Sequence record: PV660463
From: Escherichia phage LF82-41
DNA length: 64,000 bases
Reading direction: 5' to 3' (one strand)
A program made the translations under genes and the position numbers. A model generated the notes under the pieces. That model was not told the origin of the DNA, ran no database searches, and saw only the letters and a list, made by a program, of their open reading frames with translations. Below are positions 2,345 to 39,373 of this stretch, in pieces (position 1 is the stretch's first letter; the number at the start of each line of letters is the position of its first letter).

Positions 2345-4327
2345 ATGTCACTTCTCTCTCCGGGCGTTGAGCTCAAAGAAACTACCGTACAGAGTACTGT
2401 AGTTAATAACTCCACTGGTACTGCTGCCCTGGCTGGAAAATTCCAATGGGGACCTGCATTCCAGATTAAACAAATCACTGATGAAGTTGCATTAGTTGAT
2501 ATGTTTGGTACTCCTAATACGGATACAGCAGATTATTTCATGTCTGCTATGAACTTCCTTCAATACGGTAATGACCTTCGTGTTGTACGTGCAGTTGATC
2601 GTGATACTGCTAAGAACTCATCTCCTGTAGCAGGCAATATTGAATTCACAATCTCTGCTGCTGGTAGTAACTATGCGGTTGGTGATAAAATTATCGTTAA
2701 GTATTTGACCGAAACTGTTGAAGCAGATGGTTATGTCACTTCAGTTGATGTCGATGGTAAAATTCTTAACGTTTATATCCCAACCGGTAAAATTATTGCT
2801 CGTGCAAAAGAAATTAATGAATATCCTGCGTTGGGTTCTAACTGGACCGCCGAAGTTGCCAGTTCTTCTTCTGGGCTCTCTGGCGTTATTACAATTGGTT
2901 CTATCGTAACCGATTCTGGTATTCTGTTAACCGAAGTTGAAACTTCTGAAGAAGCTATTACTTCTTTAACTTTCCAAGAATCTATTAAAAAATATGGTGT
3001 CCCAGGTGTAGTTGCTCTTTATCCTGGTGAACTTGGCGACCAGCTCGAAATTGAAATCGTATCTAAAGCAGACTATGACAAAGGTGCTTCAGCCCAGTTA
3101 AAAATTTATCCTGATGGTGGTACTCGTGCATCTACTGCTAAAGCAATCTTTGGGTATGGCCCACAAACTGATGACCAATATGCAATTATCGTTCGTCGTA
3201 ACGATGCAGTAGTTCAGAGCGTAATTCTTTCTACTAAACGCGGTGAACGCGATATTTATGGTAGTAATATCTTTATTGATGATTTCTTTGCTAAAGGCGC
3301 AAGCAATTATATTTTCGCTACTGCACAAGGTTGGCCAAAAGGTTTCTCTGGCGTAATCAAACTGGGTGGTGGCTTATCATCTAATGAAACGGTTGACGCC
3401 GGTGATTTAATGGAAGCTTGGGATTTGTTTGCCGACCGCGAATCTGTTAATGCGCAGTTGTTTATTGCCGGTTCTTGTGCAGGTGAATCTTTAGAAGTTG
3501 CTTCTACAGTTCAGAAACATGTTGTAGCAATTGGTGATTCTCGCCAAGATTGCTTGGTTCTTTGCTCACCGCCACGTGCAACTATAGTCGGTATTCCTGT
3601 TAATCGTGCAGTTGATAATCTGGTTGATTGGCGTACTGCATCAGGAACTTACACTGATAATAACTTTAATGTAAGTTCTACTTACGCGGCTATTGACGGT
3701 AACTATAAATATCAATATGACAAATATAATGATGTGAATCGTTGGGTTCCATTAGCTGCTGATATTGCTGGTCTTTGTGCTCGTACAGACAATATTTCTC
3801 AGCCTTGGATGTCTCCTGCCGGTTATAACCGTGGACAAATTCTTAACGTTATTAAGCTTGCAATTGAAACTCGCCAAGCACAACGTGATCGTTTGTATCA
3901 GGAAGCTATTAACCCTGTTACTGGTACCGGTGGTGATGGGTATGTTCTGTATGGTGATAAAACTGCTACTTCCGTTCCTTCACCATTTGACCGTATTAAC
4001 GTTCGTCGTTTGTTCAATATGGTTAAAACGAACATTGGTTCAGCATCTAAATATCGCCTGTTTGAATTGAACAACGCATTTACCCGTTCTTCTTTCCGTA
4101 CAGAGACTTCTCAATATCTACAGGGTATTAAAGCTCTTGGTGGTGTATATAACTTTAAAGTTGTTTGTGATACTACCAATAACACACCAGCGGTTATCGA
4201 CCGTAATGAATTTGTAGCTACTTTCTACTTACAACCTGCGAGATCGATAAATTATATTACGTTGAACTTTGTAGCAACAGCAACGGGTGCCGATTTCGAC
4301 GAACTAATTGGTGCTGTAGGTGGCTAA
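2345..4327 (+). CDS. 18: contractile tail sheath protein (gp18-like)
   Basis: 660 aa, T4 gp18-like sequence and position after gene 17; late promoter and GAGG RBS upstream. Confidence 0.95.
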   Translation: MSLLSPGVELKETTVQSTVVNNSTGTAALAGKFQWGPAFQIKQITDEVALVDMFGTPNTDTADYFMSAMNFLQYGNDLRVVRAVDRDTAKNSSPVAGNIEFTISAAGSNYAVGDKIIVKYLTETVEADGYVTSVDVDGKILNVYIPTGKIIARAKEINEYPALGSNWTAEVASSSSGLSGVITIGSIVTDSGILLTEVETSEEAITSLTFQESIKKYGVPGVVALYPGELGDQLEIEIVSKADYDKGASAQLKIYPDGGTRASTAKAIFGYGPQTDDQYAIIVRRNDAVVQSVILSTKRGERDIYGSNIFIDDFFAKGASNYIFATAQGWPKGFSGVIKLGGGLSSNETVDAGDLMEAWDLFADRESVNAQLFIAGSCAGESLEVASTVQKHVVAIGDSRQDCLVLCSPPRATIVGIPVNRAVDNLVDWRTASGTYTDNNFNVSSTYAAIDGNYKYQYDKYNDVNRWVPLAADIAGLCARTDNISQPWMSPAGYNRGQILNVIKLAIETRQAQRDRLYQEAINPVTGTGGDGYVLYGDKTATSVPSPFDRINVRRLFNMVKTNIGSASKYRLFELNNAFTRSSFRTETSQYLQGIKALGGVYNFKVVCDTTNNTPAVIDRNEFVATFYLQPARSINYITLNFVATATGADFDELIGAVGG

Positions 4328-4340
4328 TAAGACGCCTGAT

Positions 4341-4358
4341 GGGCTATTTCGGTAGCCC
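4341..4358 (+). terminator. intergenic stem-loop after gene 18 (terminator-like)
   Basis: GGGCTA-tttcgg-TAGCCC; no T-run. Confidence 0.45.
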
Positions 4359-4359
4359 A

Positions 4360-4367
4360 TATAAATA
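4360..4367 (+). promoter_or_regulatory. late promoter TATAAATA (gene 19)
   Basis: Exact TATAAATA in intergenic region, part of repeated 16-mer TATAAATATAACTATA. Confidence 0.7.
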
Positions 4368-4439
4368 TAACTATATCGTTTAAAATTAATTCTATGGGCA
4401 TCTGGTTAATCCTAAGCCCATATTACTACAGAGGCTAAT

Positions 4440-4931
4440 ATGTTTGTAGATGACGTAACTCGTGCCTTCGAATCAGGTGATTTCGCTCGCCCTAACCTGT
4501 TCGAAGTAGAAATCTCTTATCTTGGGCAAAACTTTAGCTTCCAGTGTCGTGCTACGGCTCTTCCAGCTGCGATCGTTGAAAAGGTTCCTGTTTCTTATAT
4601 GAACCGTAAAATTAATGTGGCCGGTGATCGTACATTTGATGATTGGACTATTACAGTAATGAACGATGATGCTCATAGCATTCGTCAGAAATTTGTTGAT
4701 TGGCAAGGTATTGCAGCAGGACAAGGTAATGAAATTACCGGTGGTAAACCTGCTGAATATAAAAAGTCTGCTATTGTTCGCCAATTTGCTCGCGATGCTA
4801 AAACGGTCACTAAAGAAGTCGAAATTGTCGGCTTGTGGCCTACTAACGTTGGCGAAGTATCTCTTGATTGGGACAGCAATAACGAGATTGAAACGTTCGA
4901 AGTAACTCTTGCTCTTGATTGGTGGGAATAA
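4440..4931 (+). CDS. 19: tail tube protein (gp19-like)
   Basis: 163 aa; synteny 18-19-20; own late promoter. Confidence 0.9.
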   Translation: MFVDDVTRAFESGDFARPNLFEVEISYLGQNFSFQCRATALPAAIVEKVPVSYMNRKINVAGDRTFDDWTITVMNDDAHSIRQKFVDWQGIAAGQGNEITGGKPAEYKKSAIVRQFARDAKTVTKEVEIVGLWPTNVGEVSLDWDSNNEIETFEVTLALDWWE

Positions 4932-4935
4932 TCTG

Positions 4936-4955
4936 GTTGGGGAGAAATCCCCAGC
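4936..4955 (+). terminator. intergenic stem-loop after gene 19 (GNRA tetraloop)
   Basis: TGGGGA-gaaa-TCCCCA with flanking pairs; no strong T-run. Confidence 0.4.
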
Positions 4956-4979
4956 TTCCCGTGATGACGGAGAAGTCCA

Positions 4980-4987
4980 TATAAATA
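4980..4987 (+). promoter_or_regulatory. late promoter TATAAATA (gene 20)
   Basis: Exact TATAAATA, same 16-mer cassette as at 4360. Confidence 0.7.
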
Positions 4988-5015
4988 TAACTATAATTCC
5001 CATTCGGAGAATACA

Positions 5016-6587
5016 ATGAAATTTAATATCTTAAGTTTGTTTGCTCCATGGGCAAAAATGGACGAACGTGATTACAAAGACCAAGAAAAAGAAAATTTAG
5101 AATCGATCACCACACCAAAATTAGACGACGGCGCTAAAGAATACGAAGTATCTGAAAATGAAGCACAGCAAACATATAATGCTATGTTTCAGAGAATGTT
5201 CGGTAGCCAAGAACCAGGGCTCAAATCAACGCGTGAATTAATCGATACGTATCGAAATTTGATGACGAACTATGAAGTGGATAATGCAGTCTCTGAAATA
5301 GTTTCGGATGCTATCGTATATGAAGATGATACAGAAGTCGTTTCTATAAATTTAGACAACACAAAATTTAGTCCAAATATCAAATCAATGATGTTGGATG
5401 AATTTAACGAAGTGTTAAATCATTTATCTTTCCAACGTAAAGGTTCAGACCATTTTAGACGTTGGTACGTAGATTCTCGAATTTTCTTCCATAAAATTAT
5501 TGACCCTAAACGCCCTAAAGAAGGTATTAAAGAGCTTCGTCGTTTAGACCCACGTCAAGTTCAATATGTCCGTGAAGTTATTACAACCACTGAAGCTGGT
5601 GTTAAAATAGTCAAGGGTTATAAAGAATATTTCATTTATGACACATCACACGAATCTTATGCTTGTGATGGTCGCATATATGAAGCTGGCACAAAAATAA
5701 AAATCCCTAAAGCCGCGATTGTTTATGCCCATTCTGGTTTAGTTGATTGTTGTGGTAAAAATATCATTGGTTATTTGCATCGGGCTATTAAGCCGGCGAA
5801 CCAATTAAAACTTCTTGAAGATGCCGTCGTAATTTATCGTATTACTCGTGCTCCCGATCGTCGTGTATGGTACGTTGATACAGGTAATATGCCTTCAAGA
5901 AAAGCAGCAGAACATATGCAACATGTTATGAATACGATGAAAAACCGTATTGCATATGATGCTACTACAGGCAAGATTAAAAACCAGCAGCATATTATGT
6001 CGATGACCGAAGATTATTGGTTACAACGACGTGATGGTAAAGCAGTAACAGAAGTTGATACATTACCAGGTGCAGATAATACCGGAAATATGGAAGATGT
6101 ACGTTGGTTCCGTAATGCGCTTTATATGGCTTTACGTATTCCTATTACCCGTATTCCAAGCGACCAAGGTGGTATACAGTTTGATGCTGGTACTTCTATT
6201 ACACGAGATGAATTGTCATTTGGTAAATTTATTCGTGAGCTGCAACATAAATTTGAAGAGATATTCCTAGACCCGCTTAAAACTAATTTAATTCTTAAAG
6301 GAATTATTACAGAAGATGAGTGGAATGATGAAATAAATAATATTAAGATAAAATTTCATCGGGATAGTTATTTCTCGGAATTAAAGGATGCTGAGATTCT
6401 GGAGCGTCGTATTAATATGCTTCAGATGGCCGAACCATTTATTGGTAAATATATTTCTCACAGAACAGCTATGAAAGATATTCTTCAGATGTCTGACGAG
6501 GAAATTGAACAAGAGGCTAAGCAAATTGAAGAAGAGTCGAAAGAGGCTCGTTTCCAAGACCCCGACCAAGAACAAGAGGATTTTTAA
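5016..6587 (+). CDS. 20: portal vertex protein (gp20-like)
   Basis: 523 aa; T4 gp20-like length and position; late promoter upstream. Confidence 0.9.
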
Positions 6588-34927: not shown

Positions 34928-35260
34928 TCACTTATAAAGACACGGAATAGCTTTATAGTGGCATGTTACGAATTTCTGTTTAATTTCTTTAGGTTGTTTA
35001 AGTCCCAAAGCCACAAATGGATGTGGAACATTTCGAATTTGTCCAACTGGTAGTGGAGTCAAATCACCGACTTCAACAAAACCTTCAGGAACATCAGGAC
35101 CTACAGAATGAACTACACATAGTTCAGGAACTTCACCTTGAACACGTTTACCAATCACAAGTCCTGATTCGGTAACTTCTTCATCACCTGCTTGAGCGGG
35201 TTCAGAAACCAGAATGACATATTCACCAACAGCACGAATTGGGAGTTGTACTTCAGACAT
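34928..35260 (-). CDS. 31: co-chaperonin for GroEL (gp31)
   Basis: 110 aa; near-identical to T4 gp31 as recalled ([29 protein letters not shown]). Confidence 0.95.
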
Positions 35261-35290
35261 CTTATTTCCTTGTTGTTTGACGATAGATTA

Positions 35291-35317
35291 ATAATACCAT
35301 ACTATTCGTAAAGCATA
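35291..35317 (-). promoter_or_regulatory. middle (MotA-dependent) promoter upstream of gene 31
   Basis: MotA-box-like TATGCTTTA (35309-35317), 12-nt spacer, TATTAT (35291-35296); AAGGAAA RBS. Confidence 0.45.
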
Positions 35318-35614
35318 TTACATAAGAAGCAAACGTTCTACCGGAGTACCATCAACCGAAATTACTTTATCAAGGCGGAAAGAACGCCACTGACCTAACT
35401 TGGTATCAAATGCTCGAACTGATTCACGAGGTTCAGAACGAACTTCTGTTGCCGGATTGTTATTTTCATATTTGACTTCAAGTTCATCGCGGGAGGCAAA
35501 CATAGTGCGTACCTCGCCGTTAGCCTTTTCAAATACAACACAATGAACGCCTACAGACAGAATAGTTTTAATACGTTCACGAAGAACCATAGTTTCTTGT
35601 TCAGTTAAAATCAT
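35318..35614 (-). CDS. hypothetical protein (31.1 position)
   Basis: ATG at 35614 one nt after cd stop; track start 35626 is GTG. Confidence 0.6.
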   Translation of the reverse strand: MILTEQETMVLRERIKTILSVGVHCVVFEKANGEVRTMFASRDELEVKYENNNPATEVRSEPRESVRAFDTKLGQWRSFRLDKVISVDGTPVERLLLM

Positions 35615-35615
35615 A

Positions 35616-36197
35616 TTATTCACCACAAAAGTTTCGGATTTGTTCCCAATTCAGAGAACGAAGATTATTACGAGAGTACTGAATTACTTCAATACCAGCT
35701 TGTTTAAGAATGTCTGCCCAGTTTTCAGGAGATCGGTCATATAATTCTGCATATACAACCTTTTTAATACCTGACTGCGTAATAGCTTTAGTACAATCAG
35801 GACATGGAGAAAGCGTCGTATATAACGTAGCACCTTCAATAGAATTACCTTTACGAGCGGCAAACAAAATTGCATTCAATTCTGCATGGATTTCATTATT
35901 AGCAGACCATGCACTATGAGCAGCTCGATGTTCTTTGGCTAAAACAAAATTATCTACCCGTCCAAATGCTGTAGTGCCTTCTTTATGTCCAGCAACGATG
36001 ACTGGGATTGGTTTATTCTTCAACCAACCATTTTCAGATGCATGTTCGCAACAGTTAACGCCACCTGCAGGTGAACCGTTATATCCAGTAGAAATAATGC
36101 GTCCATCTTTTTCAATGACGGCACCAACTTTCCATGAACAACATTTTGATTCTTGAGAAATCAGATATGCAATCTGAAGGTATGTGCTAGCTTTCAT
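35616..36197 (-). CDS. cd: dCMP deaminase
   Basis: 193 aa; zinc-binding HAE and PCxxC motifs; T4 Cd-like. Confidence 0.9.
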   Translation of the reverse strand: MKASTYLQIAYLISQESKCCSWKVGAVIEKDGRIISTGYNGSPAGGVNCCEHASENGWLKNKPIPVIVAGHKEGTTAFGRVDNFVLAKEHRAAHSAWSANNEIHAELNAILFAARKGNSIEGATLYTTLSPCPDCTKAITQSGIKKVVYAELYDRSPENWADILKQAGIEVIQYSRNNLRSLNWEQIRNFCGE

Positions 36198-37189
36198 TAT
36201 TGAACCTTATTAATATAAGTTAACAGCTCTTTAGTTTGTTCCCAACTGATGCACGCATCGGTAACGGAAACGCCATAGGACATATTATCAGAAATTTTTT
36301 GATTTCCTTCATGTAGGAACGATTCTATCATAATTCCTTTGACCAAATCATTAGCTGCTAAATTTTTACCAATACCAATTTGATTGCTATAATGCCCATC
36401 AGCGTTTGCATGGCTACAGTCAACCATTACATAATGATTCAGACCTACTGCCCTTGCTTTGTTAGAAGCTTCTTGAATATCAGAAGAATGATAGTTCGGG
36501 CCGTTGGTCCCGCCACGCAATACGATATGCGTATTCTGATTACCTTCAGCTTCAACAATGCCTACAGTACCATCGACGTCCATACCCATATACCGATGAG
36601 GCCAGGCGGCACTATACATCGCGTCTGTAGCTACTTTAATAGAACCATTGGTTGCGTTCTTGAAGCCTACGCACATCGGTAGACCTGAAGCAATTTCACG
36701 ATGTGTCTGACTTTCAGTCGTACGGGCGCCAATAGCAACCCATGAGAAAATACCAGAAAGATACTTAATCGTGAATGGGTCTAATACTTCAGTTGCTAAT
36801 GGAAGTCCCATACGTAGAAGTTTACGACACAATGTTCGTGCAACTATAAGACCGTGGTTCATATCAAAACTTCCGTCAAGATATGGATCATTTACAAGAC
36901 CTTTCCAACCTACGGTAGTTCGAGGCTTTTCAAAATAAACGCGCATCACTAACAGAACATTAGGAAGACGAGTTTGAAGTTCAGCCAGACGTTTGCCGTA
37001 TTCAACAGCAGCAATAGGGTCATGAATTGAACAAGGACCTACAACAATAAGTTTGCGTGGGTCTTCACCGTTCATAATCGAATTAACTTGTTCGCGATGA
37101 GAAGCCACTTGTGATGCGTAAGCTTCCGACAAAGGAATAATCTCAGCCAGTTCTTTTGGAGAAATAAGTTTTCCGACGACAGGTAACAT
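36197..37189 (-). CDS. 3-deoxy-D-arabino-heptulosonate-7-phosphate (DAHP) synthase, type I (AroG/F/H-like)
   Basis: 330 aa; motifs GPCSIHD, MRVYFEKPRTTVGWKGL, IGARTTESQ, ILRGG, CSHANA, IESFLHEGNQ, TDACI; stop overlaps cd start; AAGGA RBS. Confidence 0.9.
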   Translation of the reverse strand: MLPVVGKLISPKELAEIIPLSEAYASQVASHREQVNSIMNGEDPRKLIVVGPCSIHDPIAAVEYGKRLAELQTRLPNVLLVMRVYFEKPRTTVGWKGLVNDPYLDGSFDMNHGLIVARTLCRKLLRMGLPLATEVLDPFTIKYLSGIFSWVAIGARTTESQTHREIASGLPMCVGFKNATNGSIKVATDAMYSAAWPHRYMGMDVDGTVGIVEAEGNQNTHIVLRGGTNGPNYHSSDIQEASNKARAVGLNHYVMVDCSHANADGHYSNQIGIGKNLAANDLVKGIMIESFLHEGNQKISDNMSYGVSVTDACISWEQTKELLTYINKVQ

Positions 37190-37309
37190 AACAATCCTTA
37201 GGAGATATAAACAGATTCTGATTCAACAATACCTTTAACCGGATTAGACAGGCTAAGTTGGTAGTGCTCAGATTTATGACCATTCTCGATAGTAATGAGA
37301 TAGCTCTCA

Positions 37310-37546
37310 TTATAGTGTTCCATATACTCGAGTTGCTTCAACAAGACCATCACTGCCTAATTTAAGGCTAGTAATCTGGTCACCATCTTTAGGATTAACG
37401 ATTATGAGAAAAGAACGTGGAGATTCTTGAATAACTCGTAATGTTGCATCCTGGAAACGTTCAGACACTTTATTGATGAGTGCTTGAGCAAATTCTTTTA
37501 CTTTAATCTGAAATTCGTGTACTGTAATTGGGGTTTCACTTAGCAT
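37310..37546 (-). CDS. hypothetical protein, 78 aa
   Basis: ORF-track ORF; ATG with GAGG RBS downstream of early promoter cassette. Confidence 0.55.
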   Translation of the reverse strand: MLSETPITVHEFQIKVKEFAQALINKVSERFQDATLRVIQESPRSFLIIVNPKDGDQITSLKLGSDGLVEATRVYGTL

Positions 37547-37575
37547 TTCGATTTCCTCATTGTGTTGGTAGAGTT

Positions 37576-37605
37576 ATAGTATCACAACTCCACCATGTTG
37601 TAAAC
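37576..37605 (-). promoter_or_regulatory. early promoter GTTTAC-N18-TACTAT
   Basis: Cassette copy upstream of ORF 37310-37546. Confidence 0.55.
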
Positions 37606-37607
37606 CA

Positions 37608-37883
37608 TTAAATTGCTTTGCATTCAATTTTTTGTGTACCGAAATTGATATCACATTGGATAACTAAATCGCCGTCAAGATCAAATACCACTATGACGTG
37701 TGCAGACCCAGGGAGAAGAGTAATAGCAATAGAATCTACTTGGTCTGGGAGTAAAGCATTGAGTACATGAGTTAGTTGAGCATGAACTCTGAGTTCGGCT
37801 GCATTATCAAGCACTTCAAACATATTATTAGCAATAATCTGACTGAAGACTACCTTTACAATTTCAGAATAAGTTGGGAACAT
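37608..37883 (-). CDS. hypothetical protein, 91 aa
   Basis: ORF-track ORF in compact early operon. Confidence 0.5.
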   Translation of the reverse strand: MFPTYSEIVKVVFSQIIANNMFEVLDNAAELRVHAQLTHVLNALLPDQVDSIAITLLPGSAHVIVVFDLDGDLVIQCDINFGTQKIECKAI

Positions 37884-37890
37884 AATTACC

Positions 37891-38115
37891 TCAGTGCACA
37901 GTATTTACTTTAACTCGAACAACAAATCGCTCGGTTGGTTCACCTACAGGAACAAACTCTACATGATATTCGCCTTTGTATCGAGTATTCAGGTCATTAC
38001 GAATTCCTGCGAGTTTGTTGATTAATGTAGGACTCATATTAAGTCCCACTAGTTTACGAAGCATTTTGTATGCTTCATCTTCGATTTCATGATGTTTATC
38101 GTACATAGTTTTCAT
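37891..38115 (-). CDS. hypothetical protein, 74 aa
   Basis: ORF-track ORF; ATG start. Confidence 0.5.
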   Translation of the reverse strand: MKTMYDKHHEIEDEAYKMLRKLVGLNMSPTLINKLAGIRNDLNTRYKGEYHVEFVPVGEPTERFVVRVKVNTVH

Positions 38116-38286
38116 TTAACCATTCAATTGCCTGGTCGACGTTATCAAATATGCCACCGTCCAAACGTTCTTCATGCTCATAGTTCAGCACATCAATACC
38201 GAACTGTCCATTTACTAAAGGCCAGGCAACAAACAAATATTCTTTATGCCGTTCAATGGCCTCAATCACTTCATATAATCGTTTCA

Positions 38287-38287
<1 letters not shown>
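38096..38287 (-). CDS. hypothetical protein, 63 aa
   Basis: ORF-track ORF; start overlaps pseT stop. Confidence 0.5.

Positions 38288-39373
<1,086 letters not shown>

Follow-up and report, generated by a model that had tools for sequence, protein, structure and literature searches.

The gene at positions 36,197–37,189 (minus strand) of the 64,000-nt stretch of Escherichia phage LF82-41 that we analyzed (PV660463; the whole stretch is called the window) encodes a 330-residue protein that profile, structural, and modeling comparisons identify as a type I-alpha, AroF-like DAHP synthase. Its catalytic residues are intact, and in all members of its phage clade the pocket that binds Tyr or Phe in related enzymes is remodeled and an N-terminal arm is lost; the enzyme is probably feedback-insensitive.

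The window belongs to a T4-like Mosigvirus and is 99.7% identical to phiEC1. The existence of the gene is already known: more than 200 phage genomes carry it as an annotated gene, it is one and the same as phrog_5045 and as the “phospho-2-dehydro-3-deoxyheptonate aldolase” of Mosigvirus, Kanagawavirus, and their relatives, and identical (100%) proteins have been deposited and annotated, among them those of O157 typing phages 3 and 6 and of p000v. The initial annotation took it for a likely auxiliary metabolic gene, which is how PHROG 5045 catalogues it. The DAHP synthase of Kanagawavirus KLB31 has been called a putative auxiliary metabolic gene (PMC11845039), and the genome paper on phiC120 mentions a DAHP synthase domain match (PMC8022965). 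In the literature searched, which was thin on subscription journals, we found such annotation-level mentions and no functional study of any phage DAHP synthase, no study of a shikimate-entry function in any phage, and no mention of allosteric-site remodeling in the phage copies. What is new here is that the phage genes form a single clade, occupy a common slot, are under purifying selection, and share a six-site pocket signature together with loss of the arm.

The open reading frame begins with ATG, and the ORF listing bears out the length and coordinates first assigned to it. Direct reading of the sequence places a Shine-Dalgarno motif, AAGGA, at 37,195–37,199 (minus strand), with the ATG five bases further on. 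An in-frame TGA (37,225–37,223) lies 12 codons 5' of the ATG with no intervening ATG, GTG, or TTG, so the N terminus is no longer than called. At the other end, the stop codon (TAA, 36,199–36,197) and the ATG of cd (36,197–36,195) have one base in common, and the resulting TAATG (36,195–36,199, minus strand) is predicted to couple translation of the two genes; both this overlap and the ribosome-binding site had been described in the initial annotation and are present as described. The product of cd (35,616–36,197, minus strand), directly downstream, is a dCMP deaminase that matches PF00383 (E = 1.6e-26) and aligns with the Cd proteins of T4 and RB69.

The assignment as a type I DAHP synthase, proposed from motifs, is borne out by strong database matches: PF00793 (E = 5e-75, 252 bits against a cut-off of 25.5), TIGR00034 aroFGH (428 bits against 173), NF009395 (455 bits against 343), phrog_5045 (E = 3e-182), and the structure of E. 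coli AroF (6AGM, E = 5e-105; 51% identity to AroF). The protein falls under the cut-offs of the AroG equivalog NF006723 (363 bits against 568) and of the AroH model NF009396 (386 bits against 463), and no AroF-specific NCBIfam model was among its reported matches. Six of the seven motifs originally cited are exact (GPCSIHD, EKPRTTVGWKGL, IGARTTESQ, CSHANA, IESFLHEGNQ, and TDACI), and the seventh, given as ILRGG, reads VLRGG (within HIVLRGG).

We aligned the catalytic residues of 27 phage-clade proteins with those of the 98 closest cellular enzymes. The metal ligands C53, H260, E289, and D311 (AroG C61, H268, E302, and D326) are the same throughout both sets (27/27 phage, 98/98 cellular). The PEP-binding set of AroG (R92, K97, A164, R165, K186, and R234) is kept as R83, K88, A155, R156, K177, and R225, and the E4P-phosphate motif as K88-P89-R90-T91. 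This KPRT motif is the feature that sets DAHP synthases apart from KDO8P synthases. The 13 residues of the metal, PEP, and E4P sites are all intact, and they are invariant across the 27 phage and 98 cellular sequences, from which we infer catalytic competence. An AF2 model (pLDDT 93.3) predicts a (β/α)8 barrel that superimposes on the N. meningitidis and E. coli DAH7PS structures with a TM score of 0.96 and an rmsd of 1.4 Å, and it includes the b6a/b6b hairpin (strands 198–203 and 209–214). The phage protein thus has in common with E. coli AroF (6AGM/6AGL) the fold, the metal ligands, the PEP and KPRT(T) E4P residues, the hairpin, and the Tyr-type Gly. It differs from AroF in being encoded by a phage gene whose composition has shifted toward AT, in lacking the first ~9 residues, and in its inhibitor site, which is I/K/G/P/Y/A where AroF and AroG have P/Q/D/S/F/T.

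An unbiased scan of 329 aligned columns, comparing the 27 phage-clade proteins with the 98 closest cellular enzymes, found only six columns that were fixed but differed between the two groups. In AroG numbering these are P150I, Q151K, D155G, S180P, F209Y, and T223A (phage I141, K142, G146, P171, Y200, and A214), so that IKGPYA replaces PQDSFT. To judge from published residue roles, all six belong to the pocket for the Tyr/Phe inhibitor or lie next to it, and a published list of feedback-resistance and contact positions covers four of the six (Fisher p = 6e-6). The P150 equivalent is replaced in 26/27 phage sequences, and both residues reported to contact the main chain of the inhibitor (Q151 and S180) are replaced in 27/27. 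In AroG, P150L is completely resistant and S180F and F209A/S are resistant; Q151 and S180 touch the inhibitor main chain, and a salt bridge made by D155 stabilizes the site (PMC9529685). In AroF, substitution of Gln152 or deletion of Ile11 makes the enzyme insensitive to Tyr (PMC5791370). The natural phage substitutions, and the N-terminal truncation described next, hit the positions whose mutation relieves inhibition in the laboratory aroG(fbr) and aroF(fbr) alleles, but the amino acids differ from those of the laboratory alleles, and they co-occur as a fixed six-site signature that has been conserved in evolution.

The second alteration is at the N terminus. Fifty-two residues precede the metal Cys in the phage protein, compared with a median of 61 and a minimum of 58 in the 98 cellular relatives, and 19 residues follow the metal Asp, compared with a median of 24.5. 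The I-alpha N-terminal extension is present in the phage protein but ~9 residues shorter, and the arm that carries the equivalents of Asp6, Asp7, and Ile10 is missing from 27/27 phage-clade proteins. The initial annotation was therefore correct that the protein is shorter than AroG at both ends, as it also is relative to AroF and AroH; its suggestion that these termini are tied to allosteric feedback holds for the N-terminal arm, whereas no link to allostery is known for the C-terminal shortening.

In a set of 150 cellular representatives that are more divergent, the residues of the pocket and the length of the N terminus differ widely, so that a noncanonical pocket alone does not prove deregulation, and the statement that the pocket residues are near-invariant in cells applies to the 98 closest relatives. 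The case for feedback insensitivity is strengthened by the absence of the arm in 27/27 proteins and by the concentration of the fixed differences on resistance and contact positions. Together, the remodeled pocket and the lost arm suggest that the phage DAHP synthase is probably insensitive to feedback.

The way in which the pocket is conserved raises a different interpretation, in which the site is still alive but binds another effector, so that DAHP synthesis would be tuned to a signal relevant to the phage. The segment DPFTIKYLSG (D137–G146, codons at 36,752–36,781, minus strand), which forms the remodeled pocket helix and contains I141, K142, and G146, is near-invariant in the phage clade, with an entropy of 0.17 compared with 0.79 in cellular enzymes and 0.99 globally, among genera that are just 53–77% identical overall. 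I141, K142, G146, P171, Y200, and A214 are likewise near-invariant among these divergent genera, and the AF2 model retains the regulatory b6a/b6b hairpin, which, with the pocket loop, is encoded at 36,548–36,679 (minus strand; codons of P171 via Y200 to A214). A pocket more conserved in phages than in bacteria is not predicted by plain loss of regulation, which leaves room for a new ligand, and the change from Gln to Lys would add a positive charge that could accommodate an anionic one. Conceivable effectors include a phage protein, a metabolite connected with nucleotides or folate, and chorismate or prephenate. The lost N-terminal arm, however, made up half of the ancestral site, the ligand is purely hypothetical, and the conservation would fit equally well a self-filled pocket locked in the active conformation. 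We regard such re-targeting as unlikely, if worth keeping in mind, and we give slightly less weight to the specific proposal that the pocket, armless and with its I-K-G-P-Y-A signature, has become a conserved new sensor that ties entry into the shikimate pathway to the nucleotide and folate economy of the phage.

The enzyme might instead have remained sensitive to Tyr and serve simply to raise dosage, by supplying extra copies that escape the shut-off of host transcription and repression by TyrR. Its nearest characterized relative is the Tyr-sensitive AroF, and several pocket residues are retained in the phage clade (AroG D146 and L179, AroF P148, and the Tyr-type Gly at the position of AroG S211). 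These residues are, however, accompanied by replacement of the main-chain contact pair in every phage sequence, by replacement of the complete-resistance position P150 in all but one, and by loss of the arm that spans the position of AroF Ile11, and we consider a merely increased dosage of a Tyr-sensitive enzyme to be distinctly unlikely.

We therefore hold, with rather more conviction than doubt, that the gene encodes a competent, AroF-derived DAHP synthase that has been freed from feedback by Tyr, Phe, and Trp and feeds chorismate synthesis during infection. According to this proposal, a Tyr-sensitive, AroF-like enzyme would have been captured once by the forebear of T4-like genera that infect Enterobacterales. 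It would then have lost the N-terminal arm, which in AroG and AroF completes the inhibitor site of the neighboring subunit, and have exchanged the residues that bind the inhibitor main chain (Gln to Lys and Ser to Pro) and their neighbors in the pocket (Pro to Ile, Phe to Tyr, Asp to Gly, and Thr to Ala). The gene would share its transcription with the early genes for nucleotide metabolism (frd-td-nrdA-nrdB ... pseT-cd.x-DAHPS-cd), and the enzyme would condense PEP and erythrose-4-phosphate to DAHP without being switched off by Tyr, Phe, or Trp, while also lying outside host repression by TyrR and TrpR. Even when amino acids were plentiful, carbon could thus continue to flow through the other shikimate enzymes of the host to chorismate, and from there to aromatic amino acids for phage proteins and possibly to p-aminobenzoate and folate, on which the thymidylate and hydroxymethyl-dCMP enzymes of the adjacent genes would draw. 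DAHP synthase is the flux-controlling step of the shikimate pathway, and so one gene could sustain flux to chorismate. Tyr makes up 3.96% of the residues of ORFs in the window, compared with 2.44% in an E. coli sample; the arguments from Tyr demand and from folate are circumstantial.

Another purpose that can be imagined is the consumption of E4P, PEP, or both, with DAHP as a by-product: fructose-6-phosphate and glyceraldehyde-3-phosphate would be drawn through transketolase into pentose phosphates for nucleotides, or PEP would be lowered. Some phages do steer carbon into the pentose-phosphate pathway, the cyanophage genes talC and CP12 being a precedent for such redirection, and the DAHP synthase gene lies within a block for nucleotide precursors and is predicted to be coupled translationally to cd. 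This idea is derived by inference alone, however; one PEP would be spent for each E4P, the host shikimate enzymes would process the DAHP anyway, and a sink and an enzyme that feeds the pathway look alike in sequence. We judge it very unlikely.

Parallels to an added enzyme at a control point exist elsewhere. By its published description, PhzC of phenazine producers is likewise an extra DAHP synthase beside AroF/G/H that supplies most of the pathway carbon for a special demand; it is cellular, lies in a biosynthetic cluster, and is described as unlike AroF/G/H (PMC8772962). Cyanophage talC/CP12 embodies the same concept of a phage version of a host enzyme that is expressed in infection and acts at a flux-controlling point, in a different pathway, and so does phage NAD+ salvage (cited in PMC11845039). 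With the existence of the gene known, it is the enzymology of the altered feedback site that is potentially important: a natural DAHP synthase, conserved over many T4-like phages of Enterobacterales, is seemingly altered where engineers mutate aroG and aroF for resistance. If the proposal is correct, it would provide a clear example, simple to test, of a phage that overrides the allosteric as well as the transcriptional control of host biosynthesis, and a natural feedback-resistant enzyme ready for production of aromatic compounds. Since natural relatives that lack the gene exist (RB69, JK36, and moha), it would also give a handle on what limits the growth of T4-like phages, be it Tyr supply, folate, or something else.

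The gene is a genuine, integral part of the phage genome. It is carried by 212 phage records and is intact in all of them, and it occupies the pseT–cd slot in Mosigvirus, Kanagawavirus, Winklervirus, Marfavirus, Bragavirus, and Kagamiyamavirus and in an uncultured T4-like contig. The phage clade is monophyletic (95/100 bootstrap), which suggests a single acquisition by the ancestor of several T4-like genera. Its dN/dS of 0.14–0.23 indicates purifying selection, its cellular homologues are no more than 55% identical, and its GC content is 41%, compared with 38% in the phage flanks and 52% in the host aro genes. A reading of the gene as DNA that strayed in from the host or is decaying, or as a selfish passenger that contributes nothing to infection, would suit its presence/absence polymorphism inside Mosigvirus and the short imperfect flanking repeat, which is typical of recombinational gain or loss, but is effectively refuted by these conservation data, by the amelioration of its GC content toward that of the phage, and by its invariant catalytic residues, and we give it almost no credence; in this the data agree with the initial annotation. 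About 11 Mosigvirus records, RB69 included, lack the gene, which is therefore dispensable.

No donor lineage was found: the nearest cellular sequences are 50–55% identical and come from unrelated phyla. A search with a phage-clade profile in a 50%-identity representative library, in which the phage clade is not a separate representative, likewise gave no donor; its top match, a tandem double-domain protein, scored high solely through its two copies and was rejected. An independent acquisition is found in Aeromonas phage HJ05, where a methyltransferase, unknowns, and an Acb2/Tad1-type sponge surround the gene; these neighbors give no hint of its function. A defense role was dropped, as PADLOC returned no match for the DAHP synthase.

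Upstream, the strand that encodes the DAHP synthase also carries frd, td, nrdA, and nrdB, as well as a homologue of RB69/T4 cd.2 (37,310–37,546, minus strand; DUF7320, PF24005, E = 7e-36; phrog_1504). In T4 the slot is filled by cd.1, and the cd–pseT interval holds only cd.1–cd.5, as the initial annotation stated. A sigma-70-like promoter between cd.3 and cd.2 (TTTACA-17-TACTAT with TG, 37,576–37,604, minus strand; 9/12 match) corresponds in position, by blastn mapping, to the early promoter that the annotation of T4 places between its cd.2 and cd.3. A promoter and terminator scan of the region gave counts equal to the shuffled expectation, without enrichment, and so the promoter call uses only positional homology to T4; with its weak match to consensus, this candidate promoter may drive the gene early. 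The 120-nt upstream spacer has an unremarkable folding energy (z = −0.88), with just a small hairpin over the vestigial cd start and no sign of a regulatory RNA.

The gene and about 105 bp of upstream spacer make up a 1,094-bp segment that is absent from RB69 (36,201–37,294, from blastn break-points); the flanks at 35,000–36,200 and 37,295–38,400 match contiguous RB69 DNA with 96–98% identity. Beside this segment, the start of cd recurs as an imperfect duplicate (ATAATGAGAGCTATCTCA, 37,296–37,313, minus strand, compared with ATAATGAAAGCTAGCACA at 36,200–36,183), which appears to be a recombination footprint flanking the insert. The duplicate could form an 8-bp hairpin over its vestigial ATG.

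The initial annotation called the minus-strand ORF at 36197..37189 of the window (330 aa, ATG start) a complete DAHP synthase (DAHPS), and we accept this identity because all profile searches concur. The protein matches Pfam DAHP_synth_1 (E=5e-75) and scores 428 bits against NCBIfam TIGR00034 (aroFGH; cut-off 173) and 455 bits against NF009395 (cut-off 343); it falls under the cut-offs of both the AroG-specific and the AroH-specific NCBIfam models. The best solved structure is that of E. coli Tyr-sensitive AroF (6AGM, E=5e-105), and pairwise identity to the E. coli enzymes is 51% for AroF, 47% for AroG, and 44% for AroH. A confident AlphaFold model (50-sequence alignment; pLDDT 93.3, pTM 0.92) closely resembles the N. 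meningitidis and E. coli DAH7PS structures (TM 0.96, rmsd 1.4 Å). In an alignment of 27 proteins of the phage clade and the 98 cellular enzymes closest to them (AroG, AroF, and AroH included), 13/13 catalytic residues are invariant throughout; these are the four metal-binding residues, those that bind PEP, and the KPRT motif. Six of the seven motifs originally listed read exactly in the protein; the other, given as ILRGG, is VLRGG.

The TAA stop (36199-36197, minus strand) overlaps the ATG of the dCMP deaminase gene cd (36197-35616, minus strand) by one base, giving TAATG, and AAGGA lies 5 bases 5' of the DAHPS ATG; this overlap and ribosome-binding site, both noted initially, were read directly in the window sequence. 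The N-terminus is fixed by an in-frame TGA 12 codons 5' of the ATG; the intervening codons include no other start. All neighbours are phage genes: cd downstream, and homologues of cd.2, cd.3, and cd.4 and the polynucleotide kinase gene pseT upstream, with alc, rnlA, nrdB, nrdA, td, and frd farther upstream on the same strand. A sigma-70-like site (37604-37576, minus strand) lies where, by homology, T4 has an early promoter, between cd.2 and cd.3. Two plus-strand ORFs antisense to the gene (36380-36682, 100 aa; 36771-36938, 55 aa) have nothing independent to support them and are in all likelihood spurious.

The order pseT - cd.x - DAHPS - (cd.1) - cd - 31.x - 31 - rIII is repeated in six named genera (Mosigvirus ATK47; Kanagawavirus Entb_45 and PEi26; Winklervirus X20; Marfavirus PWKp18; Bragavirus PM2; Kagamiyamavirus EcS1) and in one uncultured T4-like contig. 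In contrast, cd.1 occupies the DAHPS slot in T4, and in RB69, the type Mosigvirus, cd.2 runs directly into cd; the window carries a 1,094 bp insert (36201-37294) relative to RB69. Among Mosigvirus-level records, ~139 have the gene and ~11 have an empty site. No cellular protein is more than 55% identical to DAHPS; phage-clade proteins are 55-98% identical to it, and they are 319-343 aa long, compared with 341-388 aa for cellular proteins. The phage clade was monophyletic in 95/100 neighbour-joining bootstraps, the GC content of the gene is 41.4% (flanks, 37.8%; host aro genes, 52%), and its dN/dS against other genera is 0.14-0.23. Taken together with the synteny, these results argue for one old capture followed by long phage residence under purifying selection. 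DAHPS is therefore an integral but accessory phage gene and not stray host DNA, as had been proposed.

From cd to pseT the window matches Escherichia phage phiEC1 at 99.7% identity and many Mosigvirus genomes at ~98-99%, and tblastn found DAHPS in 212 phage records, full length in all. Several database copies match the protein at 100% identity and carry the annotation phospho-2-dehydro-3-deoxyheptonate aldolase, aroF, or DAHP synthase I alpha, and the PHROGs family phrog_5045 (category "moron, auxiliary metabolic gene and host takeover") covers the protein. In the searched literature there were two mentions, both at annotation level, and no functional study: a paper on Kanagawavirus KLB31 (PMC11845039) hypothesised that the gene is an auxiliary metabolic gene, and one on Mosigvirus phiC120 (PMC8022965) gave it as a domain hit. 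Its existence is thus already known, and its novelty is low because it is already catalogued. What is added here is the conserved, clade-wide remodelling of the feedback site, a specific and cheap-to-test prediction that we did not find in the searched literature.

The N-terminal shortness relative to AroG that was noticed initially extends across the clade. None of the 27 phage proteins has the N-terminal arm with the AroG Asp6/Asp7 columns: 48-52 residues precede their metal Cys, compared with a median of 61 (never fewer than 58) in the 98 cellular enzymes. When all columns were scanned without bias for those that reach 90% fixation or more within both groups and yet differ between phage and cellular proteins, 6 of 329 emerged: AroG P150, Q151, D155, S180, F209, and T223, which are I, K, G, P, Y, and A, respectively, in the phage proteins (the IKGPYA signature). 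The published list of positions that confer feedback resistance or contact the inhibitor includes four of these six (Fisher p=6e-6). AroG P150L is completely Phe resistant, S180F and F209A/S are resistant, Q151 and S180 (AroF Q152 and S181) bind the inhibitor main chain, and D155 stabilises the region through a salt bridge (PMC9529685); T223 is two residues from resistance position V221. AroF becomes Tyr-insensitive after Gln152 substitution or Ile11 deletion (PMC5791370), and Ile11 is within the arm that phage DAHPS lacks. Gly at the AroG S211 position marks the Tyr-type ancestry of the phage enzyme.

IKGPYA was found only in phage-context sequences. Among other homologues, P0020, from a T4-like contig with the same synteny, has IRNPYA, P0022 has PKGPYA, and P0024, which adjoins metH and nfuA, has the cellular signature. 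Phage genera with just 53-77% overall identity hardly differ in the segment LATEVLDPFTIKYLSGIFSWV: its entropy is 0.17, whereas the protein as a whole has 0.99 and the bacterial counterpart of the segment 0.79. The remodelled region shows no decay; its conservation fits a pocket that is locked active or has a new ligand, and does not fit a site that was simply abandoned.

Judged from these sequence features, the enzyme is probably active, expressed early in infection, putatively from the sigma-70-like site, and unaffected by Tyr, Phe, and Trp feedback, and the overall interpretation offered initially is supported. Because it lies within a phage transcription unit, the gene would also escape TyrR/TrpR repression. 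Flux is controlled at the DAHPS step, as is well established (restated in PMC9529685), and therefore one gene could sustain chorismate synthesis via the host AroB-AroC enzymes. The product may be used for aromatic amino acids, since the window ORFs are Tyr-rich (3.96% versus 2.44% in a 44-kb E. coli sample), and/or for p-aminobenzoate and folate for the chemistry of the neighbouring td, frd, and cd, a link that we infer from gene neighbourhood. A re-targeted allosteric site would also suit the conserved pocket, with its replacements at inhibitor-binding positions, and is rather unlikely. A still Tyr-sensitive enzyme that serves as a dosage boost would agree with the Tyr-type ancestry and sits poorly with the missing arm; we consider it doubtful. 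An E4P/PEP sink feeding pentose phosphates is improbable. Set beside the invariant catalytic residues and low dN/dS, a functionless passenger gene is scarcely credible.

We broadened the pocket comparison to 150 sequences, each representing one 50%-identity cluster of a 1.8-billion-protein collection; those looked up were cellular. The canonical pocket is present in 52/150, S180P and F209Y in 21/150 each, Q151K in 5/150, and a short N-terminus in 33/150, and the full phage signature in 0/150. As far as sequence can tell, non-canonical pockets are a recurrent natural theme, and the non-universality of the canonical pocket limits the deregulation reading. Aeromonas phage HJ05 (locus L012, OQ594355) has an independently acquired, distant DAHP synthase (3899-5062; 387 aa, 38% identity) with a long N-terminus and a non-canonical pocket (Q151H, S180P, F209V). 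Immediately downstream is a protein (5196-5546) with an Acb2/Tad1 hairpin domain (E=8.5e-17), of the anti-CBASS/anti-Thoeris sponge family, and a methyltransferase lies a few genes upstream. Two metagenomic homologues, P0121 (799 aa) and P0122 (730 aa), each consist of two DAHP synthase domains in tandem. In P0122 the catalytic motifs of both halves are degraded (GPVSAHD or GPEAIHD for GPCSIHD; KPRT lost), which suggests a pseudo-enzyme or regulatory duplicate.

In X20 (locus L007, 3498-3839) and EcS1 (locus L013, 3483-3818), a cd.1 homologue of ~112 aa sits between DAHPS and cd, which places the cassette slot between cd.1 and cd.2; Mosigvirus has no cd.1 at all. Proteus phage PM2 (locus L009, 1106-1822) has a homing endonuclease gene between pseT and the cd.x/DAHPS genes, another sign that the pseT-cd interval is a hot spot of gene traffic. 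At the edges of the insert in the window, the start of cd is imperfectly duplicated: ATAATGAAAGCTAGCACA at 36183-36200 and a degenerate copy, ATAATGAGAGCTATCTCA, at 37296-37313 (minus strand), directly after the cd.2 stop. The three differences in the copy yield a hairpin with a perfect 8-bp stem, TAATGAGA-GCTA-TCTCATTA, in which the vestigial ATG would be hidden. The duplicate looks like a recombination footprint of cassette gain or loss relative to RB69. The annotated RB69 Cd (locus L011, NC_004928 5743-6252) has 169 aa and ends in ...ADILKPSWY and a stop, unlike the Cd of the window and T4 (193 aa, ending ...AGIEV...NFCGE), which suggests a frameshift or truncation near the cd 3' end in the RB69 record.
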